Assembly (NCBI RefSeq): GCF_054482525.1
Contig: NZ_CM137006.1
Strand: one strand, 5' to 3'
Length of the DNA stretch: 64,000 bases
Both the position numbers and the translations under genes were made by a program. Position 1 is the stretch's first letter. Every line of letters starts with the position of its first letter. The notes below the pieces were generated by a model. It worked only from the letters and a program-made list of their open reading frames with translations, was not told the origin of the DNA and made no database searches. Below are positions 34,864 through 56,400 of the stretch, in pieces.

Positions 34864-35103
34864 TTGGTAATACCATGAAAAATACCATGCTCAGAAAAGG
34901 CTTAACAATATTTTGAAAAATTGCCTACTGAGCGCTGCCGCACAGCTCCATAGGCCGCTTTCCTGGCTTTGCTTCCAGATGTATGCTATTCTGCTCCTGC
35001 AGCTAATGGATCACCGCAAACAGGTTACTCGCCTGGGGATTCCCTTTCGACCCGAGCATCCGTATGAGACTCATGCTCGATTATTATTATTATAGAAGCC
35101 CCC

Positions 35104-35919: not shown

Positions 35920-35979
35920 CTGCACATTCGGGATATTTCTCTATATTCGCGCTTCATCAGAAAACTGAAGGAACCTCCA

Positions 35980-38849: not shown

Positions 38850-38854
38850 GCTTG

Positions 38855-38907
38855 ACACTTTATCACTGATAAACATAATATGTCCACCAACTTATCAGTG
38901 ATAAAGA
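38855..38907. promoter_or_regulatory. tet operator palindromes in the tetR-tetA divergent promoter region
   Basis: actttatcactgataaaca and aacttatcagtgataaaga palindromes between the divergent genes. Confidence 0.7.
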
Positions 38908-38954
38908 ATCCGCGCGTTCAATCGGACCAGCGGAGGCTGGTCCGGAGGCCAGAC

Positions 38955-40154: not shown

Positions 40155-40420
40155 CCCGGCAATTCCTTTCCCTGCTCTGCCATAAGCGCAGCGAATGCCG
40201 GGTAATACTCGTCAACGATCTGATAGAGAAGGGTTTGCTCGGGTCGGTGGCTCTGGTAACGACCAGTATCCCGATCCCGGCTGGCCGTCCTGGCCGCCAC
40301 ATGAGGCATGTTCCGCGTCCTTGCAATACTGTGTTTACATACAGTCTATCGCTTAGCGGAAAGTTCTTTTACCCTCAGCCGAAATGCCTGCCGTTGCTAG
40401 ACATTGCCAGCCAGTGCCCG

Positions 40421-40726
40421 TCACTCCGCGGTCTTCACTGCGTGATCGAGTTGATCGACACCCGCCGTGACACGCTCCATGAAGTGCCTGCCTGCGTCTG
40501 TTAGCCGAACGCCCCGCGCATGGCGCTCAAATAGCAGGACACCAAGGTTATCCTCCAGCGCTTTCACACGCGCGCTGACGCTCGACTGGCTGATACCAAG
40601 TGCCTTGGCCGCATGCCGAAAATTCAGATGCTCGGCGACGGCGATGAACTGAACAAGGGAAATGAGCGGTATCCTGCCAGACAGGATACCGACATTCACG
40701 AGGTTTCGATGGTTAGTGCGCCGCAT
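40421..40726 (-). pseudogene. truncated LysR-family regulator gene associated with floR
   Basis: 101-aa ORF with LysR-type HTH (HLNFRHAAKALGISQSSVSARVKALE) but lacking the effector domain. Confidence 0.7.
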
Positions 40727-40753
40727 CGGAGCGGGCCTGCTACCAGTCGTCGG

Positions 40754-41968
40754 TTAGACGACTGGCGACTTCTCGGTGGCAGCCCCACGGAGCCGAAGGA
40801 GCACCAGCCCCAACGAAACCAGTACCGCCATCGCCGTGGCGTAACAGATCACGGGCCACGCTGTGTCACCGTTTAAAAGTGCCACCGCCAATGTCCCGAC
40901 AATGCTGACTATCAGGCTTTGAACGCAGAAGTAGAACGCGACCGCTGATCCCGCGATGTCGTCGAACTCTGCCAAAGCGCCGTTCGCGGTAACGGACACC
41001 GTGAAGACAATACCGACCGCGACAACCCACATCGGTAGGATGAAGGTGAGGAATGACGGCGAGCCGTAAAGTTCGCCGATCCCCAACAGGACCGCTCCGC
41101 AAACAAGCAACGCCATCCCACGCGCCACGCATCCTGCGATGCCCCATCTGGCGACAAAGGACTTCGCGAAACGGGTTGTCACGATCATTACAAGCGCGAC
41201 AGTGGCGAAGGCAAAGCTGAATCCGATCTCGGAATATTCCGCTTGGCCTATGAGCACACGGGGAGCCGTCGAGAAGAAGACGAAGTAGGTGCCCATACCG
41301 GCGCTAAAGCCGACAGTGTAAACCCAAAAAGCCGGACTCGCGAAGATCGGCAAGACAGATCGGCGCGTCTTGACTTGATCCAGAGGGCGGGTTTCGTGCC
41401 ACCTGAAACCCGCATTTAGGAGTGCGAGCATCGCCAGTATAGCCAAAGTAATGAATATCGCCTGCCATCCCAAGAACTCGCCGATCAATGTTCCGGCGAT
41501 AGGGCCGAGCGCAGGCACGAACGCCAGCATCGAACTGAAAAGGCCGTAGATGACGACACCCTCAGGACGGTTGGCATAAACGTCGCGAACCGTCGCGAAC
41601 GTCGCCACCAGCATGGCCGACGCGCCCACTGCTTGAAGTAGACGGAAAGCGACAAAGGCCGGTGCAGTTGAAGACCAAGCTGCTCCCAGAGACGCAATGA
41701 CGAAAGCCGTTGCGCCCGCAAGTAGAATTGGCCGTCGCCCGATTCTGTCTGAGAGCGGACCAAAAATCACCTGGCCCACGCCGAGCATCACCATATAGAG
41801 GCTCAACGTGAGTTGGATCATAGCGGGCGTCGTGTTCAGGATGCCGGGCATCGCTGGAACGACAGGGAGATAAATATCCATCGCCAGTGAAGCGAGGATG
41901 TCGAAAGGAGCCATCAGCAGCAGTGCTGCCGGCAGCGTATAGGCCCACGCGGGGCGTGTGGTGGTCAT
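40754..41968 (-). CDS. floR: florfenicol/chloramphenicol efflux MFS transporter FloR
   Basis: 404-aa product matches FloR as recalled. Confidence 0.95.
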   Translation of the reverse strand: MTTTRPAWAYTLPAALLLMAPFDILASLAMDIYLPVVPAMPGILNTTPAMIQLTLSLYMVMLGVGQVIFGPLSDRIGRRPILLAGATAFVIASLGAAWSSTAPAFVAFRLLQAVGASAMLVATFATVRDVYANRPEGVVIYGLFSSMLAFVPALGPIAGTLIGEFLGWQAIFITLAILAMLALLNAGFRWHETRPLDQVKTRRSVLPIFASPAFWVYTVGFSAGMGTYFVFFSTAPRVLIGQAEYSEIGFSFAFATVALVMIVTTRFAKSFVARWGIAGCVARGMALLVCGAVLLGIGELYGSPSFLTFILPMWVVAVGIVFTVSVTANGALAEFDDIAGSAVAFYFCVQSLIVSIVGTLAVALLNGDTAWPVICYATAMAVLVSLGLVLLRLRGAATEKSPVV

Positions 41969-42184
41969 GACGAATCAACCCTCGATTAAGGAATACCGGG
42001 CGACGTCTGCTCGTCAGCAATCAGATGAGACTAGCCTTACAGAGCGCCGCAACAACAATACTGGTTGTTGCGGCTTACTTGTCTGCTGACTTGGAATTTC
42101 CCATCTGATTACTCCACGCTTACGAATATGAATTGCTACATTTTATCCGATTATCTTTTGCTTCGCAATGCGGCATGGGCGCAC

Positions 42185-43069
42185 TCAGCGTTCCAGCCCC
42201 CTCTGCCGCCCTAACTGCCACGACACCGACCCGCCCTGCACGATGCCCATAACCTCGCGGCCGAGTTGGCGGTCGATGATCGGCCGCCACGGGACAAGGG
42301 TGAACTCATGGGATTTCTCGACCACGGCGAACTTGCCGCTCGATAGATGCACGGTTCCGGTAAACTTGCCGCTGACGCTCTCGCCGTCCGTGGCGGCGCG
42401 GAACGGCAGGCCCTTACTCAAAGCCATATCCGATCCGACGCCGGCTACCTCGCGCTCCCGCAGGATGGCGAGAAGGTTGCGCCGGTAGAAGACGCGGCTG
42501 TCCCGGCTGCGGGTGGCGTCGCCCTGTTCGATATGGTGCTCGCGGCGCTGGTCCATGGCTTCGCGGACTTGTTGCCCGAAGCCGGTTGGCGCAAGGTCGG
42601 CCGTCTCGCCGTGGATCAGCCGCCGGTCCAGCCAGGTCGCGCCGTCCGATCCGATCTGTTTGTTCAGATCGACCGGGGAAAGGACGCGAACGCTGGCCTG
42701 ACTGTCTCGGCCGGCGTCATGGGCGGCGGCACGGCTGACCAGATCATTGGGGATGCGCCATTGGTCGGCGTCGATCCGCTCGACGATACCGGCCCGGCGT
42801 AGCGCCTCCAGCCGGCGCACATGGGCATCGACATAGCCCTCATAGTCGCCGCCTGGAACGCGGCACGTATAGGAAGAATAAACGCCCTTTTCACCCAAGT
42901 CCAACAGCTTTGGACCGCAGTTGACTCTTTCGACACCCCTGCGATGCAACCCAATCCGGCTGACGGGGAGCCAGCAACGCTGAAAATTTACCCTCCTCTT
43001 TCCCACTAGCGGCTCCTTTTCCGACAACCAGCACGGCGGATCCCTGCCGCGGCGCTGTGAACGCAGCAT
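42185..43069 (-). CDS. floR-associated hypothetical protein (often annotated VirD2-like)
   Basis: 294-aa GC-rich ORF between floR and the ISCR2 fragment, the position this gene occupies in floR cassettes. Confidence 0.55.
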   Translation of the reverse strand: MLRSQRRGRDPPCWLSEKEPLVGKRRVNFQRCWLPVSRIGLHRRGVERVNCGPKLLDLGEKGVYSSYTCRVPGGDYEGYVDAHVRRLEALRRAGIVERIDADQWRIPNDLVSRAAAHDAGRDSQASVRVLSPVDLNKQIGSDGATWLDRRLIHGETADLAPTGFGQQVREAMDQRREHHIEQGDATRSRDSRVFYRRNLLAILREREVAGVGSDMALSKGLPFRAATDGESVSGKFTGTVHLSSGKFAVVEKSHEFTLVPWRPIIDRQLGREVMGIVQGGSVSWQLGRQRGLER

Positions 43070-43099
43070 TTTGATTGGTATCGTTGGCCTTCAGGCTCG

Positions 43100-43753
43100 T
43101 CAGTCAAACAGACCCAGGAGCAGCTCAGCCGGTGGCGCCCGGCTTTCGGGTAACGCCCTGGTCCCGCTGGTTTCGGCTTTGTGCTTCAGGTGATCAAGGA
43201 TCTGCTTGATCACTATAGGGTCTTCAATGCAGGCGATGACTTTCATGGCGCCGCCGCAGCCGCTGCAGGTCTCGATGTCGATATTGAAAACACGCTTGAG
43301 CCGTTGCGCCCATGTCATCGACGCTCGCCGTTGTGCTGGTGTTGCCGGTTCATCAGCCACCCTGACCTTGTTGCCCCTGCCCCGTTTTGCCGGCGTGACC
43401 AACGCCCGGTGCCGACTGTTGGGTGCGAACACCCCGTGGAAGCGGGTTAGGTTGACTCTGGGCTTCGGTACCAGGGCGGCCAGCCTTGCAATGAAATCCA
43501 ATGGTTCGAAAATGACGTGCGTGGTGCCGTCCCGGTACGGCGTCTTGAGCTGGTAGCGCACGTTGCCGCCTCGTGTTAACGACAGCCGCTTCTCGGATAC
43601 CGCCGGGCGGCTGATGTACCGGCACAGCCGTTCGAGCTTCTTGCGTTCATCGGCCCTGGCCGCCACGCCGGCGTGCAGGCTGGACCCGGCTACCTTGCCA
43701 ATCCCGTCACCGAACGGATCACCACTGGTCGGCAGAGTTTGCAAAGTGAACAA
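43100..43753 (-). mobile_element. truncated ISCR2 (IS91-family rolling-circle transposase), C-terminal part only
   Basis: 217-aa ORF resembling the ISCR2 C-terminal half; N-terminal half absent, sequence changes to papI at ~43740. Confidence 0.65.
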
Positions 43754-43968
43754 CTCTGCCCCGCCTGCTTCTCTCCTTTCAGAAGCCAGTATGTTGCCAT
43801 GCCCCGTCTTAATGGTGAGCGCTGAACCATACCTGCTTTTTCCAGTAATAACAGGTAATAGCGGGCCTGGTAATCCGTTACCGCCAGCGCCTCCGCAATT
43901 TCTGCCGTTTTCCCTCCATCATGCCTGTTCAGAAATTCCAGTATTTCATTCTTCATATATTCACTCAT
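43738..43968 (-). CDS. papI: fimbrial regulatory protein PapI (3' end abuts the ISCR2 fragment)
   Basis: [61 protein letters not shown] matches PapI; ORF tail beyond ~77 codons is junction-derived. Confidence 0.8.
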
Positions 43969-44390
43969 CTCACTGTAACAAAGTTTCTTCGAATAATAAA
44001 AATCATGCTTTCTGTTATCAACGGAAAGGTATTTTTATTCTCTGTGTTTGCTGTGTTTGCTGTGTTTGCTTTATTTGTGCAATTTAGTGAATTTGCTTTT
44101 TATTTGCTTTATTTGATATGTATCACATTTTGCGTTTTATTTTTCTGTGAAAAGAAAGTCCGTAAAAATGCATTTAGACGATCTTTTATGCTGTAAATTC
44201 AATTTACTATGATGTTTTTATCTGAGCGCATTCTTATTATTAGTGTTTTATTCTAGTTTAATTTTATTTTGTGGGTTAAAAGATCGTTTAAATCAATATT
44301 TACAACATAAAAAACTAAATTTAACTTATTGCGTGAAGAGTATTTCCGGGCCGGAAGCATATATCCAGGGGCCCGACAGAAGGGGGAAAC
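43969..44390. promoter_or_regulatory. pap phase-variation switch region (papI-papB intergenic) with the two Dam GATC sites
   Basis: Only two GATC sites in the interval, at 44180-44183 and 44282-44285, 102 bp apart as in the pap switch; also a 9-bp triplicated repeat gtgtttgct at ~44041-44070. Confidence 0.7.
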
Positions 44391-44705
44391 ATGGCGCATC
44401 ATGAAGTCATCAGTCGGTCAGGAAATGCGTTTTTGCTGAATATACGCGAGAGCGTACTGTTGCCCGGCTCTATGTCTGAAATGCATTTTTTTTTACTGAT
44501 AGGTATTTCTTCTATTCACAGTGACAGGGTCATTCTGGCTATGAAGGACTATCTGGTAGGTGGGCACTCCCGTAAGGAGGTCTGCGAGAAATACCAGATG
44601 AATAATGGGTATTTCAGTACAACACTTGGGAGACTTATACGGCTGAATGCTCTTGCAGCAAGGCTTGCACCTTATTATACAGATGAGTCGTCGGCATTTG
44701 ACTGA
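44391..44705 (+). CDS. papB: fimbrial regulator PapB
   Basis: 104-aa ORF directly downstream of the switch region; PapB-like size and position. Confidence 0.8.
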   Translation: MAHHEVISRSGNAFLLNIRESVLLPGSMSEMHFFLLIGISSIHSDRVILAMKDYLVGGHSRKEVCEKYQMNNGYFSTTLGRLIRLNALAARLAPYYTDESSAFD

Positions 44706-44911
44706 ATGATGGCATTCCGGAGTTATCTTACAGATAAAAAGAAGTCCTTATCAGAAAGCAGACAGGTTATATCAGTATTCTGTCGATAAATAACCTGCCC
44801 TGAAAATACGAGAATATTATTTGTATTGATCTGGTTATTAAAGGTAATCGGGTCATTTTAAATTGCCAGATATCTCTGGTGTGTTCAGTAATGAAAAAGA
44901 GGTTGTTATTT

Positions 44912-45180
44912 ATGATTAAGTCGGTTATTGCCGGTGCGGTAGCTATGGCAGTGGTGTCTTTTGGTGTAAATGCTGCTCCAACTATTCCACAGGGGCAGGG
45001 TAAAGTAACTTTTAACGGAACTGTTGTTGATGCTCCATGCAGCATTTCTCAGAAATCAGCTGATCAGTCTATTGATTTTGGACAGCTTTCAAAAAGCTTC
45101 CTTGAGGCAGGAGGTACATCCAAGCCAATGGATTTAGATATTGAGTTAGTAAATTGCGATATTACAGCTTTTAAACAAGG
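44912..45180 (+). pseudogene. papA: major pilin papA, 5' fragment only
   Basis: MIKSVIAGAVAMAVVSFGVNAAPTIPQGQGKVTFNGTVVDAPCSIS... pilin N-terminus; pilin-like sequence ends at ~45177, where a perfect palindrome starts. Confidence 0.7.
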
Positions 45181-45189
45181 TCAAGCACT

Positions 45190-45235
45190 GATGAATCCCC
45201 TAATGATTTTTATCAAAATCATTAGGGGATTCATC
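45190..45235. repeat. perfect 21-bp inverted repeat (hairpin) at the papA truncation junction
   Basis: gatgaatcccctaatgatttt / tatc / aaaatcattaggggattcatc; no flanking T-run. Confidence 0.7.
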
Positions 45236-45583
45236 AGGACTCAGTATAAATCCAAGACAAAATCCCCCCGTGAATGCATTTAATAAAGACTTTAATGTTC
45301 TGTTAAAGGTGCGGATATAAAATGCATAAATAAAAGAAAGAGATCCGGTGATTATACCGGTGCAAAAATATGTTGTCCATTCAGGTACCGTATTTTGTAA
45401 AACAGTATAATGAGATATAGCGGATGCCCACAACATATACCAGCACAAACCACCTGTAATAAGATATGTTATTGCTGTGGAAAACCATTTCCTGTATTTA
45501 TTTTCAGGGTAATTGTTCTTGCCCATCAACGCATTTCCAGAATATTTAAAATAACCTGTCACCGAAACGGAATAAAGGCGCAA
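45200..45583 (-). CDS. hypothetical small membrane protein (127 aa)
   Basis: Hydrophobic segments (LITGGLCWYMLWASAI; GIITGSLSFIYAFYI; GGFCLGFIL); 42 bp downstream of the dGTPase gene on the same strand. Confidence 0.4.
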   Translation of the reverse strand: MRLYSVSVTGYFKYSGNALMGKNNYPENKYRKWFSTAITYLITGGLCWYMLWASAISHYTVLQNTVPEWTTYFCTGIITGSLSFIYAFYIRTFNRTLKSLLNAFTGGFCLGFILSPDESPNDFDKNH

Positions 45584-45625
45584 TAACCATAACGGGAAAA
45601 TATGCGCCTCTGGTAATCGGCAGTG

Positions 45626-46858
45626 TTACTTCAGACAGTGAGTTTCCCATTCCTTGACTGCAAATGTATCCATCATACCTGAAATATAGTCAACCACTGC
45701 TCGTTTTTTGCTGATTTCAAATATACAGGAATCTGGTTGGGGTAAGGTGAATTTAAGTTCAGGAGGCAGAAATTTATAATTCTCTCCTTCATTGTAAAAG
45801 TCATATAAATCCCTGATTATTTTATTTCCCCTGAACTCATAGGTGAGGATATTACGTTTTCGCATGATGACTTTAAAGAGAAGTTTTTTGAGTCCTTCGG
45901 ATAACGCATTCAGTTTCCCGAACCCCAGTTCCTGAAAACCATTCAGGTTCGTTACTACAGAAATATCTGCAACGAGGCGATTGACAATATTTGAAGTTAA
46001 CTCCTTGCGGAATATGATGGCAAATTCTTCTGAGGTTTTCAGTAAGTTAGCCTGAAAAGCGGTGTTTCTCGACTGAGTAACGATTTCCCTGAACTGTTCC
46101 CTCGCTCCCCGGAATTCGTCAGAAATCTGAAACTCATATTCAATATCTTCAATCGTGACCATGTTCCTGCTAAGGGCATCTTCCAGGTCATGCGCGGCGT
46201 AGGCAATCTCATCCGCGAGATCCATTATCTGCGCATCAATCGTTTTCTCTCCGGGATTCAGATCGAGCTGATTTTCAGCAAGCAGGTTAATGTAAAAATA
46301 GTAATCATCATCATAAATGAACTTGCCGGCAGTAGCTGCAGCGCGGGGGATGGGATACTTAACAACCGAAAGTAAACTACGGTGAGTCAGATTTAATCCG
46401 TTGCAGTATGAAAATTTCTTCTCCAGTTTTCTCAGGATACGTAGCGCCTGTGCATTACCTTCATAGCCGCCGATTTCTTCAGACAGTTCATTAAGCAGTT
46501 TTTCACCGGAATGACCGAAAGGAGGATTTCCGATGTCATGCGCCAGCGCTGCCAGTTCAACCACCACCGGGTTAATCAGTTTGAGGTCTGACGCGATACT
46601 TCGGGCGATCTGAGCAACCTCAAGACTGTGCGTTAATCTGTTTCTGTTGAATTTTTCAGGATCAATTTCAAAAAGTTGCATCTTTCCCTGCAGCCTGCGA
46701 AATGATGATGAATACAGAATACGCGCGTAATCCCGTTGATAATTATCCCGGCTTCTTGTTTCACCATCGGGGGACGGGTGCTCTCTGGTATCAGCAAGCG
46801 CACTGATAAGTTTTTGTTCCTGCTCTTGCGCAAATTCTTTTAATTCATTGCAGTACAT
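45626..46858 (-). CDS. HD-domain dGTPase-like deoxynucleoside triphosphate triphosphohydrolase
   Basis: Motifs YQRDYARILYSSSFRRLQGKMQLF, RLTHSLEVAQIARSIA, LAHDIGNPPFGHSGE typical of Dgt-family enzymes; start at second Met (RBS-like AAGGAAG upstream); AT-rich. Confidence 0.75.
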   Translation of the reverse strand: MYCNELKEFAQEQEQKLISALADTREHPSPDGETRSRDNYQRDYARILYSSSFRRLQGKMQLFEIDPEKFNRNRLTHSLEVAQIARSIASDLKLINPVVVELAALAHDIGNPPFGHSGEKLLNELSEEIGGYEGNAQALRILRKLEKKFSYCNGLNLTHRSLLSVVKYPIPRAAATAGKFIYDDDYYFYINLLAENQLDLNPGEKTIDAQIMDLADEIAYAAHDLEDALSRNMVTIEDIEYEFQISDEFRGAREQFREIVTQSRNTAFQANLLKTSEEFAIIFRKELTSNIVNRLVADISVVTNLNGFQELGFGKLNALSEGLKKLLFKVIMRKRNILTYEFRGNKIIRDLYDFYNEGENYKFLPPELKFTLPQPDSCIFEISKKRAVVDYISGMMDTFAVKEWETHCLK

Positions 46859-47008
46859 ATTTCTTCCTTTCTGGAGCATGTTACCAAATCAGAATACCGG
46901 ATGAACAAAACTGGTGGCTACATCCTGTAGGGATTATGTATTAGTAAGCTCTGGCCATTAGTGCCATTTCAGGTTATGTGATCCTACCCACGTAATATGG
47001 ACACAGGC

Positions 47009-47875
47009 CTAAGCGAGGTTCTTGTTTTCAAATTGTTCCGGACTGAGGCCGCCACACCAACTGTGCCGCCGCCACCGATTGTAATCACATTCGATATAAT
47101 TAAACACCGTTGCCCGCATTATTTCCCGGCTGATAAAGTGTTCTCCATGGATACATTCCACTTTCAGCGAATGAAAGAAGCTTTCCACGCAGGCATTATC
47201 GTAGCAGCAACCTTTTGCGCTCATACTTCCACGCAGATTATGCCGCTTCAGTTGCGCCTGATAATCTGCTGAACAGTACTGGCCTCCACGGTCCGTGTGA
47301 ACGATAACGTTCCGGGGCCTCTTACGCCGCCACAGCGCCATCTGCAGGGCATCGCAGGCCAGTTGCGCCGTCATGCGTGGCGACATTGACCAGCCAATAA
47401 CGGCACGTGACCACAGGTCAATGACCACTGCCAGATACAGCCAGCCTTCATCTGTACGTAAGTACGTGATGTCTCCTGCCCACTTCTGGTTCGGGCCACT
47501 GGCGTAAAAATCCTGCTCCAACAGATTTTCTGACACAGGCAGGCCGTGTGCGCGGTAGCTGACCGGGCTGAACTTCCGGGAGGCCTTTGCCCTCAGTCCC
47601 TGACGGCGCAGGCTTGCCGCCACGGTTTTTACGTTAAAGGGGTAACCCTGAGCACGCAGTTCATCCGTCAGGCGTGGGGCACCGTAACGCTGTTTTGACC
47701 GGGTAAAAGCCGCGAGGACAACGCTGTCGCAGTGTTGGCGGAACTGCTGACGCGTGCTTATCCTTGTCCGCCGCTGACACCACGTATACCAGCCGCTGCG
47801 GGCCACCCGGAGCACGCGGCACATTGCTTTGATGCTGAACTCAGCCTGATGTTTTTCAATAAAGACATACTTCAT
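47009..47875 (-). CDS. insF: IS3 transposase OrfB
   Basis: 288-aa product matches IS3 OrfB as recalled. Confidence 0.9.
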
Positions 47876-48170
47876 TTCAGACGATTCGCAAAGTATGTCG
47901 CGGCCTTTTGGAGGATAGCCAGTTCCTCTGCCTGCTCCGCCAGTTGCCGCTTCAGGCAGGCATTTTCAGCGGCCAGTTCACTTTCACGCTCTGACGAACT
48001 CATTTGTTGCTGCAGTTTGCTGCGCCACGCATAGAGCTGTGATTCATACAGGCTGAGTTCACGGGCTGCGGCAGCAACACCGATGCGTTCAGCAAGTTTC
48101 AGGGCTTCACTGAGAAATTCAGGCGAATGCTGTTTACGGGGTTTTTACTGGTTGATACTGTTTTTGTCAT
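47871..48170 (-). pseudogene. insE: IS3 orfA with a 1-bp deletion in a poly-A run near codon 9
   Basis: Translation from ATG at 48170 gives MTKTVSTSKNPVNSIRLNFSVKP*; element is 1257 rather than 1258 bp; no minus-strand ORF >=60 aa in the track here. Confidence 0.6.
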
Positions 48171-48337
48171 GTGAGTCACCTCTGACTGAGAGTTTACTCA
48201 CTTAGCCGCGTGTCCACTATTGCTGGGTAAGATCAAGTCTTACTTACCCTGTGAACCATGTTGATATTGATACTATATTGACTATATGCCATACAGGTGG
48301 TAATGATTAGTTACTACCATACAGGAAAAGGTAGAAA

Positions 48338-49318
48338 ATGACTCTTTTGGTAACGGCTGAGTGTGTTGACGATCTGATAAACGATGTTCATCAAGCTATC
48401 CTAGCGGATGGACTCAGTAACGATCCTACAAAAGGATCAACTCTAGAGATTCTTGGTGCCTATCTTGTCCTTACCGACCCCCGCCGAAGAATAAGTAGAA
48501 CAGAATCCCGAGGAAAACTAATTAGTTGCTTAGGTGAATTTCTGTGGTATCTCTCAGCTCAGAACGATCTTGAGTTTATAAAACACTTCATACCACGTTA
48601 CGCTGAATCCGCTGAGTCAGATGGGAAAATACATGGTGGTTACGGGCCACGGTTGTTTAATATGCGTGGTTTATATAATCAGCTAAAAAATGTTATCAAC
48701 CTTTTGCAGGAGAAAAAACCTACCAGACGTGCAGTAATACAGCTTTTCGATGCCTCAGACTTGGTGCCCTCAAAAACTGAACAGCGAGAATACGTAGATA
48801 TTCCTTGTACAATATCTATGCAGTTTATTGTCAGATGTGAAGAGCTGCATCTATTTGTTTGTATGCGTTCTAACGATGCCTTTATGGGGCTGCCTCATGA
48901 TGTATTTGCGTTCACGATGCTACAGGAATTAGTTGCCCGCTTGATAGGATGCGAATTGGGTCACTATCATCACTTTGTATCCAGCCTACATCTCTATAAA
49001 AATGATTTAGAAAAAGTGAAGGCTCTTCAGAAAGAGGGGTTCATGAGCACCCTACCAGTCATGGGATCGATGCCTGAAATGCATTCCTTAGATGATATCT
49101 TACCCCTGCTTGAGGCAGAAAAAGCTCTTCGAGAGAATAAGGAATTTGATATTGACACTACTTCCTTGAATGACTACTGGAAGGATTTATTGCGTATATT
49201 AAAAATCCACTTTTTGTTACGTTCACATACACCCAACCACAAAGGACTAGCCTTCCAAGAGTTGGCTGCAATGAAAAATCAGGAATATCGGTTTATTTTT
49301 GAAGGAAGACTACAATGA
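48338..49318 (+). CDS. thymidylate synthase-fold protein (ThyA / dNMP hydroxymethylase family) with ~90-aa C-terminal extension
   Basis: Aligns by eye to ThyA: GSTLEILGAYLVL, ISCLGEFLWYL, LYNQLKNVINLLQEKKPTRRAVIQLFDASDL, DIPCTISMQFIV (Cys at catalytic position), CMRSNDAFMGLPHDVFAF, HLYKNDL. Confidence 0.7.
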   Translation: MTLLVTAECVDDLINDVHQAILADGLSNDPTKGSTLEILGAYLVLTDPRRRISRTESRGKLISCLGEFLWYLSAQNDLEFIKHFIPRYAESAESDGKIHGGYGPRLFNMRGLYNQLKNVINLLQEKKPTRRAVIQLFDASDLVPSKTEQREYVDIPCTISMQFIVRCEELHLFVCMRSNDAFMGLPHDVFAFTMLQELVARLIGCELGHYHHFVSSLHLYKNDLEKVKALQKEGFMSTLPVMGSMPEMHSLDDILPLLEAEKALRENKEFDIDTTSLNDYWKDLLRILKIHFLLRSHTPNHKGLAFQELAAMKNQEYRFIFEGRLQ

Positions 49319-50259
49319 AAAGACATAATCAAATCAGTCAGCTGGTTAGTAATTTGCAAAATTTTAGCCGCAATGAACACAACCTAAATGGCCTAAGTTC
49401 TCCTGCCTGCTTTGATGTTTTAGCCTGTCAGATTATCGACAGTATACGTCGTATACGCTATGTGGAAACTCTTGCATTACGGACCGATTATATGACTCCG
49501 TTACGAAAAGAGCCGAATTCTGATGTTTTTGATCCTCTCCGCGCTGCCTGCCTTTATCTTCGTGACAACAATTACGATGAAGCCTGCTGGCTGGTTTTCC
49601 TTGCCACACATTTCGGCAAGAGTAACAAAACCGGCTGGATTTTGTGTCGAGATATATACAGTGGACTCGGTACACAAACGTGGACATGGGATACGATAAC
49701 TGATGACTTTGCTGCTTTTGAACAATGGTTCGCCAGCGTCTCTGATGAGTTGACAGCTAACAGTAGCCTAAGACAATATGGTAACCATCGGAAATATGAA
49801 ACGAAGAAATATCACTCTCGTCGTTCAATACCTGCGGTTTTTCGCTCTTACATCGGATTCATTGGTGCTACACACAGTCATGAGGCTAGGTTTGCAGAGG
49901 CCAAGAGCTTTTCATCTTCACCAGAATCTTTATTCGAACTATTGTATTCAGGGCTAAATGCCGTGATCTCATTTGGACGAACCGCAAAATTTGATTACCT
50001 AACTATGCTCAAGAAAACGGGACTTCTGGATGTAGAGCCGGGTCATGCTTTTCTGAATGGAGCAACCGGGCCCCTTCAAGGAAGCCGGCTACTTTTCAGC
50101 AATAGCCGGACTGCTGGTGACACAATAGACGTATTGAATGAAAAACTAGCTGACCTTGCGGCAATTATTCCTGCACCCTACTTGAGAATGCAGGTTATTG
50201 AAGATGCGTTGTGCAACTGGCAGAAATCACCTGACCGTTATGTCTATTTCGGCGGCTGA
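49315..50259 (+). CDS. uncharacterised protein co-operonic with the TS-fold gene
   Basis: 314-aa ORF overlapping upstream gene by 4 bp (ATGA); no motif I can assign. Confidence 0.5.
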   Translation: MKRHNQISQLVSNLQNFSRNEHNLNGLSSPACFDVLACQIIDSIRRIRYVETLALRTDYMTPLRKEPNSDVFDPLRAACLYLRDNNYDEACWLVFLATHFGKSNKTGWILCRDIYSGLGTQTWTWDTITDDFAAFEQWFASVSDELTANSSLRQYGNHRKYETKKYHSRRSIPAVFRSYIGFIGATHSHEARFAEAKSFSSSPESLFELLYSGLNAVISFGRTAKFDYLTMLKKTGLLDVEPGHAFLNGATGPLQGSRLLFSNSRTAGDTIDVLNEKLADLAAIIPAPYLRMQVIEDALCNWQKSPDRYVYFGG

Positions 50260-50261
50260 TA

Positions 50262-51344
50262 TCAGACGATATCTTCTTTACGGAATCTCACTTTAAACCG
50301 ATTAAGGTGAGAAAAAGGTATATTACCTTCATGCTGCAAATATCCCAGTACGATCCCTTTGGATACCCCCATTTTCCTAGCTAACCGGATGATCTCTTTC
50401 CAATGCCGGACACCATAGCGACTAAGTTGCTGCCGGTATTCTTCTGGGATAAGAACATCAACGGCAAATTTATCTGCTTCCTTTTCCTCTTCCGACGAAA
50501 GACTATCTTTACCTTCTACGCGAACTCGGACAGCTTCATGCAAGATGAGATGCCCAATCTCATGAAACAGCGTAAACCAAAAATGGTCATCGGTCAGATA
50601 ACGGAAACTCATGACTAGGGTTGCGCGATCTGGTGTAAAAAAGCAGGTAGCACCACTTGCCCGACATCCCTTTGGCGTTGGCAACACAACGAGAGAAACT
50701 CCAGCAGTGGCGAGAAGGTCGCGAATGTAAGGGATAAAAATCCTCATGTCGGGTTCATTTGTAGCTTTGCGCAGTTCTGGCAACAATGCTATCAGCCCCT
50801 CTTTATCCCATACAGCACAGTTTTGGTTTGAGGTAAGTTGTGCAGCCCTAGTCAGCCACACCAAATCGGCCATAGGCTCGGTTGCCAGATTAAGAGATTT
50901 ACGAAAAGCGACCAAAGGAGCATCTGACTGAATTTTATAAAAAAAATCATTGACGGAATTTATTCCGAAAAACGATAGGCAGTGCTGGAATTTACTTTCC
51001 CGAGTTGTAGTTTTGGGGATCCAACCAAACTCCATCATATCACGTACAGGCAATGATTCGAGCCAATCATTATTCACTTTCTCGAGGTATCCAATTTGCT
51101 GGCGATAAGCGACTTCGCGCTTGATCCAGAAGTCTGTCGATACGTTGAATAACTCCTCAAGCTTACAAGCCAGAGACTCATTGAGTCGGATTTTTCCTTC
51201 AAGAAGTTGCTGACCCCGGATAAGAGACAATCCAATCCTCTTACTCAGTTCTTCACCAGAAAGCCCATGTTCATCCATTAGATCTATAATTGTATCACCG
51301 GGTGGAGATACCCAGTCAGGCTGGAAGTCCTGCGTAACTATCAT
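50262..51344 (-). CDS. XRE-family HTH fused to ImmA/IrrE-type zinc metallopeptidase (HigA-like antitoxin/regulator)
   Basis: N-terminal HTH (IIDLMDEHGLSGEELSKRIGLSLIRGQQLLEG), C-terminal HEXXH (FTLFHEIGHLILHE); overlaps upstream small gene by 4 bp. Confidence 0.65.
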   Translation of the reverse strand: MIVTQDFQPDWVSPPGDTIIDLMDEHGLSGEELSKRIGLSLIRGQQLLEGKIRLNESLACKLEELFNVSTDFWIKREVAYRQQIGYLEKVNNDWLESLPVRDMMEFGWIPKTTTRESKFQHCLSFFGINSVNDFFYKIQSDAPLVAFRKSLNLATEPMADLVWLTRAAQLTSNQNCAVWDKEGLIALLPELRKATNEPDMRIFIPYIRDLLATAGVSLVVLPTPKGCRASGATCFFTPDRATLVMSFRYLTDDHFWFTLFHEIGHLILHEAVRVRVEGKDSLSSEEEKEADKFAVDVLIPEEYRQQLSRYGVRHWKEIIRLARKMGVSKGIVLGYLQHEGNIPFSHLNRFKVRFRKEDIV

Positions 51345-51667
51345 TTCACGTCACCTATGAACACTAACCGTATCCGGCTAACTCGGGACCAGTTAATTGT
51401 ATTATCTTGATTTTTGGGCTGAACTGTATTCCCACAGACAAATCCCATTTTTACATCACCGAGAATGGTAATTGTAATACACTCTTCCCCATCCTCAAAG
51501 CAGACCTCCGGCGAACCTACGGGCAACAGTAATATGTTGTCTGTCACGGAAAGATCGGAAAGTCGCGAGCGTAGTCTTGATGCCACTTTGTCACCAAAGA
51601 TCTCATTTGCCTCATGCATACTCTCGCAAATAGTCCTTAACTTCTTGCTTTGAAAGGTAATGAACAA
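51341..51667 (-). CDS. HigB-like (killer-protein family) type II toxin candidate
   Basis: 108 aa; N-terminal KKLRTICESMHEANEIFGDKVASRLRSRLSDL resembles HigB-family pattern; toxin-first gene order. Confidence 0.5.
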   Translation of the reverse strand: MFITFQSKKLRTICESMHEANEIFGDKVASRLRSRLSDLSVTDNILLLPVGSPEVCFEDGEECITITILGDVKMGFVCGNTVQPKNQDNTINWSRVSRIRLVFIGDVK

Positions 51668-51810
51668 AATTATCCACTTTTATTTTTCTTGGTTGCTACG
51701 TTTATAGCAAACTCAACGCTCATTCACAAAATGAGATGTAGCGAATTAATGGACTCTGCACATATTAAATGTTAATGATGGACTTAAAATCACGGATTCG
51801 TAAGGGAAAC

Positions 51811-52077
51811 ATGAAAGGTAAACATCAAGACACTAAAGCCCTGTCTGACGTGCTAGCGGAAATGCAACGGCAGGATGCCAAATGGGGGGCAGACCGTAAT
51901 CAAGATCCTTTTATCTGGGGAGCGATTCTCGGAGAAGAGGTGGGAGAATTTCATCAGGCTGTCCTCCATGATCGTTTTGGTGGTAAAGCAGCCGGTACCA
52001 GTAGGGAGGAAGCAGTACAAATTGCTGCTGTTGCACTGCAAATCATCGAATATTATGATCGCGTAATAGATCGATAA
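51811..52077 (+). CDS. small MazG-like NTP pyrophosphohydrolase-like protein (tentative)
   Basis: AILGEEVGEFHQAV and REEAVQIAAVALQIIEYY resemble the MazG EExGE helix pair; start at internal Met of ORF 51769..52077. Confidence 0.35.
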   Translation: MKGKHQDTKALSDVLAEMQRQDAKWGADRNQDPFIWGAILGEEVGEFHQAVLHDRFGGKAAGTSREEAVQIAAVALQIIEYYDRVIDR

Positions 52078-52261
52078 ATTAGAATTAATCAACTAAGAGT
52101 CTTTTACACGCGAAGATGAACTCTGGCAGCCATCTACCTTCGTGGGCCTGTAGAACACATCTAATTGCAATACTCCCAGTTAATCACTAACCAGCCTCTC
52201 CAGTAAGGCTGGTCGATTAGGTTTAATTAAACAGATATAACAAGCAATTCACTTGGTATTA

Positions 52262-52335
52262 CGCGGTTCACACAGACTTCTTTAGTTGTGTCATATCCTA
52301 TAACTTTCAGAGGCTTATTTACGGTATTATCACGA
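52262..52335 (-). pseudogene. internal fragment (~75 bp) of a P4-type integrase gene
   Basis: ggttcacacagacttctttagttgtgtcatatcctataactttcagaggcttatttacggtatt parallels int at ~11095-11170; flanked by an ISL3-type end. Confidence 0.5.
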
Positions 52336-52930
52336 ACGGTGCAAAAGTGGCTCTTCCGCAACCTAGGTGGAGATTTTCATGCCAGTGGACTCATTACCCT
52401 CTGCCTAAGTAGTTCAAATCCGGCTCGACCATACATCAGATGTTTCAGCATCTTCAGGCGATTTACATGACCTTCGACAACACCGTTACTCCAGCGGCTG
52501 CTGGTTGCCTCACATATAGCCGCAGCATCAGCTTCCATCCCCGCAGCCACGCGCCGAAGTTCTGCTGAACCGTTTTCGTGGACTCGAGTGAACCAACTGC
52601 TTAGATTTGATTTATTTGGGGTTTTCAGAATACGGTAGAACTCAAGTACTAGTTGCTGCGCTATTTTCAGCGCCGGTTCTTTTTCACACATCAGACTAAT
52701 AAATCGGGAAGCATAATTTTCTTCACCCCTGATTATTATCCAGGGCATCAACCAGCGGCTTACCCGGGACACTGAAGGAAGTCTGGCGGCAGTAGTAACT
52801 GGTGGGTTCCAGCCTTTACGCCATTTGGCAACAGCATCCCTGACGATGGTTTCACTGCCTGTAACCCCCGGGCCACCATTTCCCGCCATATCCAGTCGCT
52901 GGTGTGCTGAATTGGTCATGTATGAAGGAA
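52336..52930 (-). mobile_element. ISL3-family IS remnant (3' part of transposase gene and one terminal repeat)
   Basis: ORF 52377..52919 ends with ISL3-type C-terminus WSNGVVEGHVNRLKMLKHLMYGRAGFELLRQRVM; terminal sequence ggctcttccgcaa at ~52336. Confidence 0.55.
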
Positions 52931-53081
52931 GATATCAATGGTGGTATCTCCCTTTCAAAAGGAAGTGAAAAGCTTGATGCCTGCTGCCAGGCAATCAATA
53001 TTACGTGCTTTTAACGACTATCCTAAATGGTGGTAGCTATGCAGAGCTCCCGGTCCTAGCGCTGGGAGCTTATCGCTTATC

Positions 53082-53158
53082 TTTACCGTAAGCGTAAACG
53101 GACCGCCGTATGTAGCCATTAAACCAGTATTGGTAACGTAGATACCCACCTTTTCAAA
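53082..53158 (+). mobile_element. isolated IS66-family terminal repeat (~75 bp), same end and orientation as 33183..33255
   Basis: tttaccgtaagcgtaaacggaccgccgtatgtagccattaaaccagtattggtaacgtagatacccaccttttcaaa, ~90% identical to the 33.2-kb copy. Confidence 0.4.
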
Positions 53159-53495
53159 AGGGAAGTGGATAAAAGATAGCGAAAATGCGAAGAGTTGATT
53201 AATGCATTGAAACAAAATTCATTAATGATGAACTTGGAGAAAAGCTCCATCGTTTTATTGGCTCAAAAAACATATCCCATAGATGATCAGCCATACCTTC
53301 ATTGGTTAGCAAGGTATCCTGTGAGTAGCCATGGCTGAAGATGCCCATTGATGGGCGAAAACCAAGGATCTGACCGTTAGAGCAGTTATGTCGTTAAACA
53401 CATCACCACCATATGCCATCCGGCTCACTTCGTCGGCCAAATTAGTGTGATATTCTTTCCAGAAATGCTGTTGTATCCACGACATAAGGCGATGA

Positions 53496-56400
53496 TTGAT
53501 GGAGCAGTCTCTCAATTTTGAAATGTTGCGCAGCCAGTGGCCGGAACTGGCTGAACTCGCGTGTATGGCGGAACGCTATGTTCACTCCGATCCGGAAAGT
53601 TGTCTGGTCAAGCTGCGCAACTACACCGAATTGATGGTGCGCTGGTTGTATCGTCAGGAGCGGTTGCCGGAAGGTATTAAGGCTAATCTTTACGATTTAA
53701 TGAATGCTGATGTCTTTACCAGCATGATGCCGGAAGCCATCATCATGAAAATGGATGCGCTGCGTATCCATGGCAACCGTGCCGCGCACGGCGGACGTAT
53801 CAAAGCTAAAGATACTTACTGGCTGCTCAAAGAAGCGTATTTGTTGGGAATTTGGCTGTATGTTCGCTACGCCCACGGTAATGTTGATGACTGCCCCAAA
53901 TTTACACTCCCTCCATTAACACAATCTTCAGGTCGTGCAGATGAAAAACGTCTGGAAGATGCAATCAGGGCTCAGGATGAAAGCCGTGAGCGCGAACTGG
54001 CGCTGCAACGCGCACTACAGCAAGAACAGGAAAAGGCCGAACACCTCACTCAACGCCTGAATGAAGCCAGAGCGCGTAACCAGCATGTTGCCGATATTCT
54101 CTCTATTGATGAAGCGGAAACCCGCCGTCGCCTGATTGACTCTCGCCTGCTTGCTGCTGACTGGAATGTAGGCGAAGGCCTTAAAAATACCGATCAGGTT
54201 ACGCAGGAACATCCCGTTAAAGAACAACCTACCGCGACCGGAGACGGTTATGCGGACTATGTCTTGTGGGATGAGGCACACAAACCGCTGGCGGTGGTGG
54301 AAGCAAAAAAAACCAGCGTCAATGCCGAGCAAGGACGAATTCAGGCCCGGCTGTATGCAGACTGGCTGGAAAAAGAATACGACCAGCGTCCGATCATCTT
54401 CTACACCAACGGCTATGATATCTGGCTGTGGGATGACCATAAAACTCATGGTTATCCCCCGCGTCGGGTGTTTGGCTTCTACAGCAAGGAAAGCCTGCAA
54501 TATCTTATTCAACAGCGTGAAACCCGTCTTCCGCTGAACAGTGTGCCGCACGTAAAAGATAACGAAGGTAAGGCCGTTGCCGGACGTTTGTACCAGCTTG
54601 AAACCATTGCCCGTGTCAGCGAGCGGTTTACCAACAAATACCGGCAATCGCTAATTGTTCAGGCTACGGGTACAGGCAAAACCCGCGTGGCAATAGCGCT
54701 AAGCAAACTAATGATTGATGCCCGCTGGGTAAAACGCGTCCTGTTTCTTTGCGACCGCAAGGAACTACGTAAACAGGCGGCGAATGCCTTTAATCAATTC
54801 ACCAATGAGCCGCTGTATGTGGTCGGGAAATCGAAAAAAGCAGACAGGCAGAATGCTAGGATCTACATCGCCACCTATCCTGGTATGATGAAAATCATGG
54901 ACCATTTCGATGTTGGTTATTTCGATTTGATCATCGCCGATGAATCCCATCGCTCTATCTACAACGTTTACGGCGATCTGTTTAAGTATTTTGATGCCCT
55001 CCAGATTGGCCTGACGGCCACGCCGATTGACATGGTGAGTAAAACCACTTTCGGCCTGTTTGGTTGTGAAGGACGTATTCCTACCGCCAACTACAGCCTG
55101 GAAGATGCCATCGCCGATAACAATCTGGTTCCCTATGAGGTTGTCACGCACACCACAGAATTCCTGCGCGAAGGCATCAAACGGGAGAAATTAAGCGACG
55201 CACAAATCCGCGAGCTGGAAGAACAAGGCATAGATCCCAATACGCTGGAGTTTGATGGCAAGGCGCTGGATGAGGCGATCTACAACAAAGACACCAACCG
55301 CTATATCCTGCGTAACCTGATGGAAAATGGCCTGAAAGATCGGGACGGCCAGTTGCCAGGTAAAACCATCATTTTCGCCCGTAACCACAAACACGCGCTG
55401 CTGTTGAATGAATTATTCGACGATATGTACCCGCAGTTTGCCGGGCGCTTCTGCCAGGTCATCGACAATTACGATCCCCGCGCCGAGCAACTGATTGATG
55501 ATTTTAAAGGGCTGGATGAAAGCACCAACAAAGAGCTGACCATCGCTATCTCCGTTGACATGCTCGATACCGGTATTGATGTCCCGGAAATTGTGAATCT
55601 GGTCTTTGCCAAACCGGTCAAATCAAAAGTGAAGTTCTGGCAGATGATTGGCCGTGGTACGCGCCTCTGTCCGGGGTTGTACGGTTACGACGATAACGGC
55701 AAACCTCTGGATAAACAGAAATTCCGCATTTTCGATCACTGGGGCAATTTTGAGTATCACGAACTGCATACCGAAGAGGCCGAAGTCACAGCGACAAAAT
55801 CGCTTGCACAAAAACGCTTCGAAGCGTGGGTTATGCTGGGGGCCGCTGCGCAACGTAAATTCGACAAACAGGCGGTGGATTTAGTTGCTCACCAGCTACG
55901 CGAGCAAATCAATGCACTGGATGAAAAGTCGATTGCCGTCCAGGAAAAGTGGCATCAAAAAGCGCAGTACAGCGATGAAAAAGTGCTGCGCCAGCTTTCC
56001 CCGAAAACACAGCAGGATTTGCTATCTGTCCTGGCCCCGCTGATGCAGTGGCTGGACGTGCGCGGGCAAAGCGACGCTATGCGCTTTGATATGGATATTC
56101 TGGCGGCGCAAACTGCCCGTTATACCAACCCGGAAGAGCTGGATGTGCTCTGGCCGGTCATCGTCGAAAAAGTGGAGCGCCTGCCGCCGCATTTGGCGCA
56201 GGTCCAACAGCAAGGACCGCGGATCAATCAGCTTCGTGATTTAGGCTGGTGGAAGCAGGCCAGCCTGGAAGAGCTGGAAGATATCCGCATTCATCTGCGC
56301 GGCATCATGCACCTGATGGAAAAAGACGCGACGCCGAAATTTGGTTCGATACAGGTGGATATTACCGAAGATGCGAACCTGATTCAGACGGAAAACCGCA

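Follow-up and report, generated by a model that had tools for sequence, protein, structure and literature searches.

Introduction

Why should a thymidylate synthase (TS)-fold gene, a dGTPase gene, a small MazG-like gene and a toxin-antitoxin-like pair lie side by side on an Escherichia coli genomic island? The question is posed by positions 45,190-52,077 of a 64,000-nucleotide stretch of contig NZ_CM137006.1 (RefSeq assembly GCF_054482525.1); this whole stretch is referred to below as the window. A preliminary description, made from the sequence alone, had read these genes as one defence islet built around nucleotide metabolism, its modules joined by recombination at an IS3 copy. The genes that it named are all present within about 7 kb, and the segment is AT-rich, as it had stated, being part of a low-GC chromosomal genomic island of E. 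coli with a GC content of 37-46% outside IS3. Our results nevertheless suggest a different partition of the locus. The TS-fold gene, its partner and the toxin-antitoxin-like pair very likely constitute a single cassette found in distant bacterial phyla, whereas the dGTPase does not travel with it.

A conserved cassette of two convergent operons

As delimited in E. coli, the cassette spans about 4 kb (positions 48236-52215) and comprises five genes, preceded by a promoter region and closed by a terminal hairpin. On the plus strand lies the gene for a TS-fold pyrimidine C5 enzyme of 326 residues (48338-49318; WP_000174035; Pfam PF00303, E = 6e-25). Its stop codon overlaps by 4 bp the start of a translationally coupled gene for a 314-residue protein of aGPT-Pplase clade 3, an amino-acid:DNA-transferase-like protein hereafter called Pplase3 (49315-50259; WP_000820616). 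The minus strand encodes a 360-residue fusion of an Xre helix-turn-helix (HTH) domain with an ImmA/IrrE (M78) metallopeptidase bearing a HEIGH motif (50262-51344; Pfam PF06114 and HTH_3). The start of this gene overlaps by 4 bp the stop of a gene for a 108-residue protein of HigB/RelE fold with a TTG start codon (51341-51667), and these two genes are likewise translationally coupled. The TS-fold and Pplase3 genes thus stand tail to tail with the Xre-M78 peptidase gene and the small gene that precedes it.

This arrangement is by no means peculiar to E. coli. An alignment of Pplase3 homologues was scanned against one genome per species, about 100,000 genomes in all, which yielded 242 confirmed relatives; 80 of the loci were kept with 10-kb flanks, and the window proteins were mapped onto them by tblastn. 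The 80 loci span about nine phyla, including Proteobacteria, Bacteroidota, Planctomycetota, Chloroflexota, Actinomycetota, Acidobacteriota, Verrucomicrobiota and Myxococcota. The four-gene order was seen in essentially all of them, with all four core genes intact in 70 of 79 loci and, in 77 of 78, a small minus-strand open reading frame (ORF) directly 5' of the gene for the peptidase. The flanks, by comparison, show no such conservation, even the largest gene family in them being confined to 8-12 loci. A clustering of the genes beyond chance is borne out by the recurrence of this order in distant phyla. We are confident that the cassette is one functional unit. Its members do not, however, include the dGTPase, which was found at none of the 80 cassette loci outside E. 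coli and is also absent at the cassette in E. coli TC24 and SCU-152 and in the Providencia, Pectobacterium and Vibrio contexts. Since the dGTPase is absent and the toxin-antitoxin-like pair invariant at all these loci, the pair has to be regarded as half of the cassette, rather than as the module of its own that it was first taken for, and the dGTPase as separate. Of the genes once proposed to travel together, the TS-fold, Pplase3, Xre-peptidase and small genes do so, joined in Enterobacterales by the MazG-like gene.

The way in which the two operons meet is a conserved and unusual feature. The stop codons of the Pplase3 and peptidase genes are 2 bp apart in the window (50259/50262), and across the loci (L002-L081) the stop-to-stop distance has a median of 0 bp; of the 76 pairs, 36 show an overlap of 4-29 bp, and 73 are no more than 50 bp apart. 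With stop codons that abut or overlap, the two convergent operons must overlap transcriptionally. The arrangement leaves no space for terminators between the convergent genes, which suggests antisense or transcriptional-interference coupling. Upstream of the TS-fold gene, a consensus scan located a promoter-like site (TTGACT, an 18-nucleotide spacer and AATGAT, with TG upstream) at 48278-48307 on the plus strand, 30 bp from the gene. Two CCATACAGG repeats (48289-48297 and 48317-48325) flank this site and are a possible operator, and in the four genera E. coli (Escherichia), Enterobacter, Pectobacterium and Providencia the motifs ATTGACT and GGTGnTAAT do not vary. When the two promoter regions of the cassette were compared, the only repeats common to both were at chance level.

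The spread of the cassette is patchy, both between species (242 of about 100,000 species genomes) and within E. coli, where 231 of the 5426 genomes contain 80% or more of positions 48236-52077. Its surroundings point to integrative elements. In E. coli SCU-152, an IS3-free copy (homology over 48233-52215, 98.3% identity) sits in another context, between hsdS and the selC-island integrase, in the order hsdS, cassette, integrase and tRNA-Sec. Both E. coli TC24 and Providencia have it directly 3' of an island integrase and 5' of a type I restriction-modification (R-M) system. An integrase and type I R-M genes thus adjoin the cassette in TC24, SCU-152, Providencia and the window alike. The Pplase3 clade is also carried by ten plasmids, and one Leptospira plasmid has a Pplase3 homologue.

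The TS-fold enzyme probably acts on a cytosine deoxynucleotide

The name 'thymidylate synthase', which RefSeq gives to the TS-fold protein despite its cytosine-type Asp, does not describe it well. Its closest solved relative is the CMP 5-hydroxymethylase MilA, matched over the full length including the C-terminal extension (E = 1.6e-41), compared with an E-value of about 1e-11 for E. coli ThyA. Its match to the Pfam family Thymidylat_synt (PF00303) is weak, and ThyA models score at best 81 bits against a cut-off of 327. We aligned 74 members of the family to E. coli ThyA and counted the residues at the positions that matter for catalysis and specificity. The catalytic Cys157, Ser178 (S167 of TS) and Asp188 are present in all 74, as are R166, D169, H207 and Y209 in ThyA numbering. 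Asp188 occupies the position of ThyA N177, so that the uracil-specifying Asn is replaced by Asp without exception. The Glu corresponding to ThyA E58 (E67 in the window protein) is found in 71 members and Arg130 (R126 of TS) in 66; position 154, equivalent to T4 D145, is acidic in 63, and the Trp at the TS W83 position is absent.

The structural work on MilA (PMC5175136) provides a key for reading these residues: Asp indicates a cytosine substrate, Ser and Arg a deoxyribose, and Ala and Lys a ribose. Because the family combines the cytosine-type Asp with the deoxyribose-type Ser and Arg, its predicted substrate is dCMP, and we consider it likely that the enzyme acts on a cytosine deoxynucleotide. 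As to the reaction, the acidic residue at the T4 D145 position and the missing Trp83 make us lean towards a predicted dCMP hydroxymethylase. The TS-fold gene and its partner reported in the preliminary description are thus both present, but the enzyme is of the cytosine type and hydroxymethylase-like instead of a thymidylate synthase. DefensePredictor (Science 2026; PMC13092281) includes this very protein (WP_000174035.1) among its predictions of novel defence genes, with log-odds of 7.6.

Two known systems offer a direct comparison. The T4 gp56/gp42 system and MilA resemble the cassette in having the Cys, the Glu, the Asp at the N177 position and the acidic residue at the T4 D145 position. 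In contrast to T4, the cassette has neither a dNMP kinase nor a glucosyltransferase. Compared with the MilA/MilB pair, it has the deoxy-type Ser and Arg, and the partner of its TS-fold enzyme is Pplase3 and not a MilB-type N-glycosidase.

A cellular clade of the aGPT-Pplase family as partner

The partner protein matches Pfam PF18746 over positions 4-278 of 279 (E = 5.5e-90) and PF18724 over all 232 positions (1-232; E = 1.1e-58). Its motif E296-D297-x-x-C300-N301-W302 is found in all 79 Pplase3 homologues. The Cys and Glu of this motif recall the essential Cys and Glu of the clade-2 phage enzymes, a parallel that should be read as an analogy. No homologue of the Pplase3 clade was detected among 50,697 phage records. 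The aGPT-Pplase domain, together with MazG and UDG, is named among the predicted, unvalidated defence domains of DefensePredictor (PMC13092281).

The combination of the two enzymes is reminiscent of phage thymidine hypermodification, in which a dUMP hydroxymethylase works with the 5-HMUDK kinase and with an aGPT-Pplase of clade 2, or amino-acid:DNA transferase (AADT) (Lee et al. 2021). In both cases a TS-fold hydroxymethylase, predicted in ours, is paired with a member of the aGPT-Pplase family, and the Cys and nearby Glu of Pplase3 are consistent with covalent attack at C6 and an exocyclic methylene intermediate. There are also differences. Pplase3 is a cell-encoded member of clade 3, its TS-fold partner has cytosine-type residues, the cassette has no DNA base kinase, and it is coupled to a regulator/toxin-like pair. 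A second parallel is DS-4, a validated defence system composed of a TS, a dNMP kinase, a 5-hydroxymethyldeoxyuridine (5-hmdU) DNA kinase, a TIR protein and NMAD (PMC13092281). The cassette shares with DS-4 the association of a TS-fold enzyme with enzymes from phage base-hypermodification chemistry. However, the two TS-fold proteins are only 29% identical, and DS-4 has kinases and a TIR effector but neither a Pplase nor an Xre-peptidase pair, whereas the cassette has no kinase.

The Xre-peptidase pair resembles two components of PD-λ-2

The minus-strand operon finds its counterpart in PD-λ-2, a validated E. coli defence system in which the Xre-peptidase is toxic alone, is rescued by a HigB-like protein and is accompanied by a third, required protein (Vassallo et al. 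2022). Residues 15-341 of our Xre-peptidase match the PADLOC model PD-Lambda-2_B (E = 8.7e-30), and HExxH is present in all 77 homologues. The 108-residue protein has no sequence match in Pfam, NCBIfam or PADLOC, including the PD-λ-2 A model. Its AlphaFold model is of high confidence (predicted local distance difference test score, pLDDT, of 94.6), and the best Foldseek match of this model is the HigB protein of P. vulgaris (probability 1.0, template modelling scores of 0.63-0.72, E = 7e-3). In its architecture the pair resembles components A and B of PD-λ-2: a small HigB-like gene lies 5' of an Xre-HTH/ImmA-IrrE fusion gene, in a co-transcribed-type arrangement. The cassette departs from PD-λ-2 in that the PADLOC A model finds no sequence match in its small protein and in that there is no P4 antitoxin-like third component, the place of which is taken by the convergent, 3'-overlapping TS-fold/Pplase3 operon. 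The cassette thus looks like the two-gene module of PD-λ-2 attached to a different third part and is best described as a PD-λ-2-type module combined with cytosine-directed, hypermodification-type enzymes.

The 108-residue gene is easily missed by annotation. It is absent from the tables of the NCBI Prokaryotic Genome Annotation Pipeline (PGAP) for W2-5, EC2 and TUM12357, three records with an intact window-type allele. Divergent alleles are annotated in E. coli TC24 and Providencia.

Accessory genes differ between lineages

In the window, a small all-alpha protein that PGAP labels 'MazG-like' is encoded on the plus strand at 51769-52077 (88 residues from 51811), divergently from the HigB-like gene. 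The gene adjoins the cassette in E. coli (in three contexts), Enterobacter, Pectobacterium and Providencia, where the other flanks differ, and it is the fifth cassette member in Enterobacterales. Taken singly, the protein has no match in Pfam, NCBIfam, PADLOC or the PDB. A profile search with its family placed the MazG-family structures 2gta and 1vmg on top, with weak matches (E = 0.2-0.5), and an acidic motif EEvGE...E..Q (the metal-binding motif of MazG enzymes being EExxE...ExxD) is invariant in the family.

Other lineages have other enzymes at this place. A second MazG-like family, the PDB match of which is the pyrophosphatase 4qgp, lies beside the cassette in eight alphaproteobacterial loci, and a comparison of the window family with this Rhizobiales MazG-like family by hhalign gave no relationship (probability 0.1). 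NUDIX genes adjoin the cassette in four loci; their best NCBIfam model is a pyrimidine (d)NTP diphosphatase, and one of them matches the PADLOC candidate PDC-S07. Three unrelated kinds of pyrophosphatase gene are therefore found next to the cassette. In phage T4, the dCTPase gp56 supplies dCMP to gp42. By analogy, the repeated recruitment of pyrophosphatases would fit a need for dCMP, and the NTP pyrophosphatase gene near the cassette could supply it as gp56 does. The MazG-like gene of the preliminary description can accordingly be retained in the sense that NTP pyrophosphatase-type genes are associated with the TS operon, in four enterobacterial genera and, through unrelated MazG-like and NUDIX genes, elsewhere, but the label itself is a weak one for the window protein.

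A different addition is seen in 29 loci (for example L007, L008, L015, L018 and L020), in which a gene for a protein of about 265 residues is inserted between the TS-fold and Pplase3 genes. This protein has no sequence match in Pfam, NCBIfam, PADLOC or the PDB. Its structural model (pLDDT 93.6) displays a UDG-superfamily fold, with human TDG, UdgX and family-4 UDG as the best matches, so that, as judged from the model, it has a TDG-like glycosylase fold closest to TDG. We also noticed a protein of about 100 residues (MAVYVDNARIxWRGRxWCHLxADS...HYDV), which may be DUF4031-like, beside or inside the cassette in 12 loci (L020, L023, L031, L039, L049, L055-L057, L060, L061, L067 and L076).

The window MazG-like family also has members in phage-related contexts. 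In the P2-like prophages of Photorhabdus (L089-L091), homologues with 43-70% identity lie beside the gpA replication gene and DNA methyltransferase genes, and further homologues occur in other phage-like contigs (L087 and L092). The family is common to phages and the cassette.

The dGTPase is a separate unit

The dGTPase gene itself encodes an HD-domain dGTP triphosphohydrolase of 417 residues on the minus strand (45626-46879; PGAP places the start at 46858, giving the 410-residue WP_000271619). The protein scores 316 bits against TIGR01353 (cut-off 152) and matches the PADLOC dGTPase model over profile positions 19-369 of 395 (E = 1.5e-109). It does not reach the cut-offs of the curated NCBIfam anti-phage dGTPase models (284 bits against 400 for NF041026 and 252 against 383 for NF003701). 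With the model of the housekeeping Dgt, PRK04926, it obtains only 156 bits against a cut-off of 405. The dGTPase is thus far below the cut-off of its housekeeping model, as is the TS-fold protein below those of ThyA.

The region is present in 317 of 5426 E. coli genomes, with a type I R-M system within 7 kb. Defensive dGTPases have been reported in or beside type I R-M operons, and one E. coli member was protective (Tal et al.); the location of the window gene fits this. We conclude that positions 45626-46879 encode a stand-alone, island-borne dGTPase that is predicted to be of the nucleotide-depleting defence type. The parallel drawn in the preliminary description with nucleotide-depleting dGTPase and dCTP deaminase homologues is thus sound for the dGTPase, which matches the class model and adjoins type I R-M genes, but no gene here is a dCTP deaminase. 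The action proposed below for the cassette would, like that of the enzymes of Tal et al., deprive phages of a dNTP. Unlike them, the cassette has neither a deaminase nor a triphosphohydrolase, depletion would proceed via C5 modification of dCMP, and the dGTPase is not part of it. Independence is also apparent from the distribution within E. coli, where the dGTPase region occurs in 317 and the cassette in 231 of the 5426 genomes, but the two together in only about 183.

The dGTPase may have a partner of its own. Downstream of it in the window (45200-45583, minus strand) is a 127-residue ORF, which comparison with strain EC2 identified as a 3'-truncated copy of a gene for a predicted membrane protein of 189 residues (WP_021522448 or WP_000517678). 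Homology with the full EC2 copy begins at 45234, and the C-terminal 60 or so residues are replaced; the truncation coincides with the join of a pap fragment and the resistance region described below. The full gene lies directly 3' of the dGTPase gene in E. coli EC2 (L082, 7582-8151), RX24 and FORC_028. Its product found no family match in scans of NCBIfam, PADLOC and Pfam.

IS3 and the history of the junctions

What separates the two units in the window is a 1257-bp IS3 copy on the minus strand (46979-48235; NF033516, E = 3e-101), which abuts the left end of the cassette exactly. Its transposase gene is described by PGAP as frameshifted, and the element is one base short of the 1258-bp copy in FORC_028, which is annotated as intact. 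The transposase and both ends are present, but there is no 3-bp target duplication, the flanks being ATG and AGT, in agreement with the preliminary description.

Comparison of genomes suggests what IS3 may have done here. In SCU-152, whose cassette is free of IS3, homology to the window breaks off no more than 3 bp from the end of IS3. What lies at the other flank of IS3 depends on the genome: it is the dGTPase in most, and a fragment of a VENN pre-toxin gene beside the arc operon in TUM12357 (L086, 6744). In FORC_028 (L084, 7601-8859), the same IS3 is fused to the middle of the MazG-like gene, the whole cassette up to that point having been lost through an adjacent deletion caused by the IS3 copy. 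The suggestion that the modules were joined by IS-mediated recombination is hence plausible. With IS3 at the exact cassette boundary, homology lost at the same point in SCU-152 and a variable far flank, the evidence favours an IS3-mediated rearrangement that set the cassette beside the dGTPase. The junction of the original insertion was not found; it is predicted to be one in which ...AACGTCAAGT is joined to the right inverted repeat (IRR) end of IS3 at an SCU-152-like site.

Strain EC2 might at first sight be taken for the ancestral empty site, which would make the adjacency of the two units older than IS3. In EC2, the dGTPase gene, which is frameshifted, lies directly beside the TS-fold gene without IS3, and about 14-16 bp more are missing. 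These missing bases (AGTCTTACTTACC...) are native to the cassette in SCU-152, and the EC2 junction is the exact product of a deletion between 5-bp TGTGA repeats at 46977-46981 and 48250-48254 (EC2 L082, 9599-9603). The reading as an ancestral empty site is therefore rejected; EC2 represents an imprecise IS excision by microhomology.

The surrounding defence island

Positions 44000-53500 are 100% identical in many complete E. coli chromosomes, and at least 80% of this stretch is held by 183 of 5426 genomes. In strain W2-5, the copy belongs to a mosaic island with a resistance region (sul2, strAB, tetA, floR and ISCR2) and pap fragments on one side and the type I R-M system on the other. In the window, the DNA 5' of the segment (about 34000-44000) contains an ISCR2/IS91 remnant, a DUF3363 gene, floR, tetA/tetR, strAB and sul2, abutting papI/papB and a papA fragment. 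As the resistance genes are fused to pap fragments, the resistance module was inserted into the island.

On the 3' side, a 180-residue fragment of an ISL3-family transposase (52377-52919, minus strand) lies between the cassette and hsdR. The type I R-M system is followed by an ABC ATPase akin to AriA, NsnB or PDC-M55A. This 540-residue ABC/AAA ATPase and a 298-residue protein are encoded on the plus strand immediately 3' of hsdS (59758-62276; GC content 31-35%). In PADLOC, the ATPase matches PDC-M55A (E = 1e-40), NsnB (E = 3e-37) and AriA (E = 5e-22), and its 298-residue neighbour has no match. Together they are probably a further defence pair inside the type I R-M locus. With a defence-type dGTPase, a type I R-M system and an AriA/PDC-M55A-like ATPase, the region is a defence island, as the preliminary description had supposed, but it is not one unit, since the dGTPase is missing from every cassette locus elsewhere. 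Our assessment, held with only moderate assurance, is that the segment comprises two independent units brought or kept together by IS3 on an integrative defence island. One of them is a known kind of anti-phage enzyme, and the other, the cassette, is a widely distributed, computationally flagged candidate system.

Discussion

What, then, might the cassette do? From its gene content and relatives we think it fairly probable that it is an anti-phage or conflict system. Gene content, synteny, active-site residues, folds and genomic contexts were computed, and from them we infer a mechanism that we put forward tentatively: an immune system that would turn phage base-hypermodification chemistry against phages. 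The HigB-like/Xre-peptidase pair would hold the system off and sense infection or DNA damage, the 3'-overlapping convergent operons possibly being part of the switch. Once this PD-λ-2-like sensor had released the predicted dCMP hydroxymethylase and Pplase3, the accessory enzyme, MazG-like or NUDIX, could hydrolyse dCTP to dCMP in the manner of T4 gp56, and the TS-fold enzyme could hydroxymethylate the dCMP. With its Cys and Glu, Pplase3 might then act on the 5-hydroxymethylpyrimidine, in DNA or as a nucleotide, and either derivatise it or remove it, so that the deoxycytidylate pool or replicating DNA would receive an aberrant 5-substituted base. The phage would be starved of dCTP or given the aberrant base, and its replication would be blocked. 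In the 29 loci encoding one, the TDG-like glycosylase could subsequently attack that base. The specific route, whether by diversion of the pool or by poisoning of DNA, is no less speculative than the scheme as a whole.

Several observations weigh against this scheme. The main difficulty for a route through DNA is that none of the 80 cassette loci has a conserved kinase gene: 5-hydroxymethyl-dCMP (hm-dCMP) would need a kinase, and the characterised clade-2 transferases require a phosphorylated 5-hydroxymethyl group. The preference for hydroxymethyl over methyl transfer is inferred from similarity and two residue positions. The HigB-fold match is a moderate one (E of about 7e-3), and the family lacks the catalytic C-terminus of HigB, with one Cys invariant. 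Sequence evidence that the window protein is a MazG is weak, and the family of this protein also occurs in P2-like prophages away from any cassette. Finally, models for the TS-fold protein, Pplase3, the small HigB-like protein and the MazG-like protein are all lacking in PADLOC (2023).

Four other explanations deserve consideration. One is the reading with which we began, namely that the dGTPase, the TS operon, MazG and a separate toxin-antitoxin pair cooperate, or are co-selected, as a single nucleotide-depletion islet stitched together by IS3. All the genes do lie within 7 kb of a defence island, 183 E. coli genomes have the whole arrangement, and IS3 stands without a target duplication at the exact boundary of the cassette. 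Yet, as a single unit, this islet is largely refuted by the missing dGTPase at all 80 cassette loci in other taxa and in the TC24, SCU-152, Providencia, Pectobacterium and Vibrio contexts, by the unequal numbers of dGTPase and cassette genomes (317 and 231, with about 183 in common) and by a toxin-antitoxin-like pair that is always within the cassette; we regard it as improbable. Even less can be said for housekeeping metabolism, that is, for a dGTPase, an additional thymidylate synthase and a house-cleaning enzyme of the MazG kind. The RefSeq names 'thymidylate synthase' and 'dGTPase family' would agree with it, but genes found in only 4-6% of E. coli genomes, on a low-GC island, hardly would. 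The distribution and the active-site residues, with Asp in place of Asn in a TS-fold protein far below the ThyA cut-offs, refute this explanation, as does the score of the dGTPase, far below the Dgt model, and we attach almost no probability to it.

The two remaining alternatives accept the chemistry and differ in its purpose. The enzymes might produce bases derived from 5-hydroxymethylcytosine in the DNA of the host or the island, marking it as self or protecting it from restriction, with the Xre-peptidase and HigB-like proteins as an addiction or regulatory module. All characterised relatives of Pplase3 modify DNA bases, such pathways are supplied in phages by TS-fold hydroxymethylases, R-M systems often adjoin the cassette, and 29 loci encode the TDG-like glycosylase fold. 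On the other hand, the cassette has neither a kinase to take hm-dCMP to the triphosphate nor a DNA base kinase, the clade is found in no phage or satellite, constitutive modification would be ill served by a glycosylase that takes the mark off again, and the tight link to a PD-λ-2-like sensor pair points to action that is triggered and not constitutive. We judge self-modification to be rather unlikely, though it deserves more credit than the other three alternatives. The product could instead be a free modified pyrimidine or nucleoside, an antimetabolite used in inter-bacterial competition or signalling, with Pplase3, and the UDG-fold protein where present, acting as N-glycosidases on hm-d(C)MP. 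MilA, the closest solved relative, is matched over its full length including the C-terminal extension, and Pplase3 has a predicted glycosylase-like fold, while the extra protein models as a UDG-superfamily fold. Mildiomycin (MilA/MilB) and bacimethrin (BcmA) are precedents, and PMC4081090 describes a hydroxymethylase paired with an N-glycosidase. Against this, where MilA and BcmA have the ribose residues Lys133 and Ala176, the family has the deoxy-type Arg and Ser; the cassette lacks additional genes for tailoring, export or resistance, and the context is one of integrative islands with R-M systems and not of biosynthetic clusters. A role as an antimetabolite producer is therefore, in our estimation, about as improbable as the single islet.

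Whichever explanation applies, the cassette is hidden from annotation-based surveys by the 'thymidylate synthase' label and by the HigB-like gene that goes uncalled. Its enzymes could also interest biotechnology as base- or nucleotide-modifying tools. If, as in the immune scheme proposed here, the cassette is defensive, a TS-fold enzyme and an aGPT-Pplase-family enzyme that together modify cytosine deoxynucleotides at C5 would represent a new effector chemistry, and the PD-λ-2-type HigB/Xre-peptidase pair would be a portable sensor module serving different effectors. In that case, clade 3 of the aGPT-Pplase family, the cellular one, would also acquire its first function.

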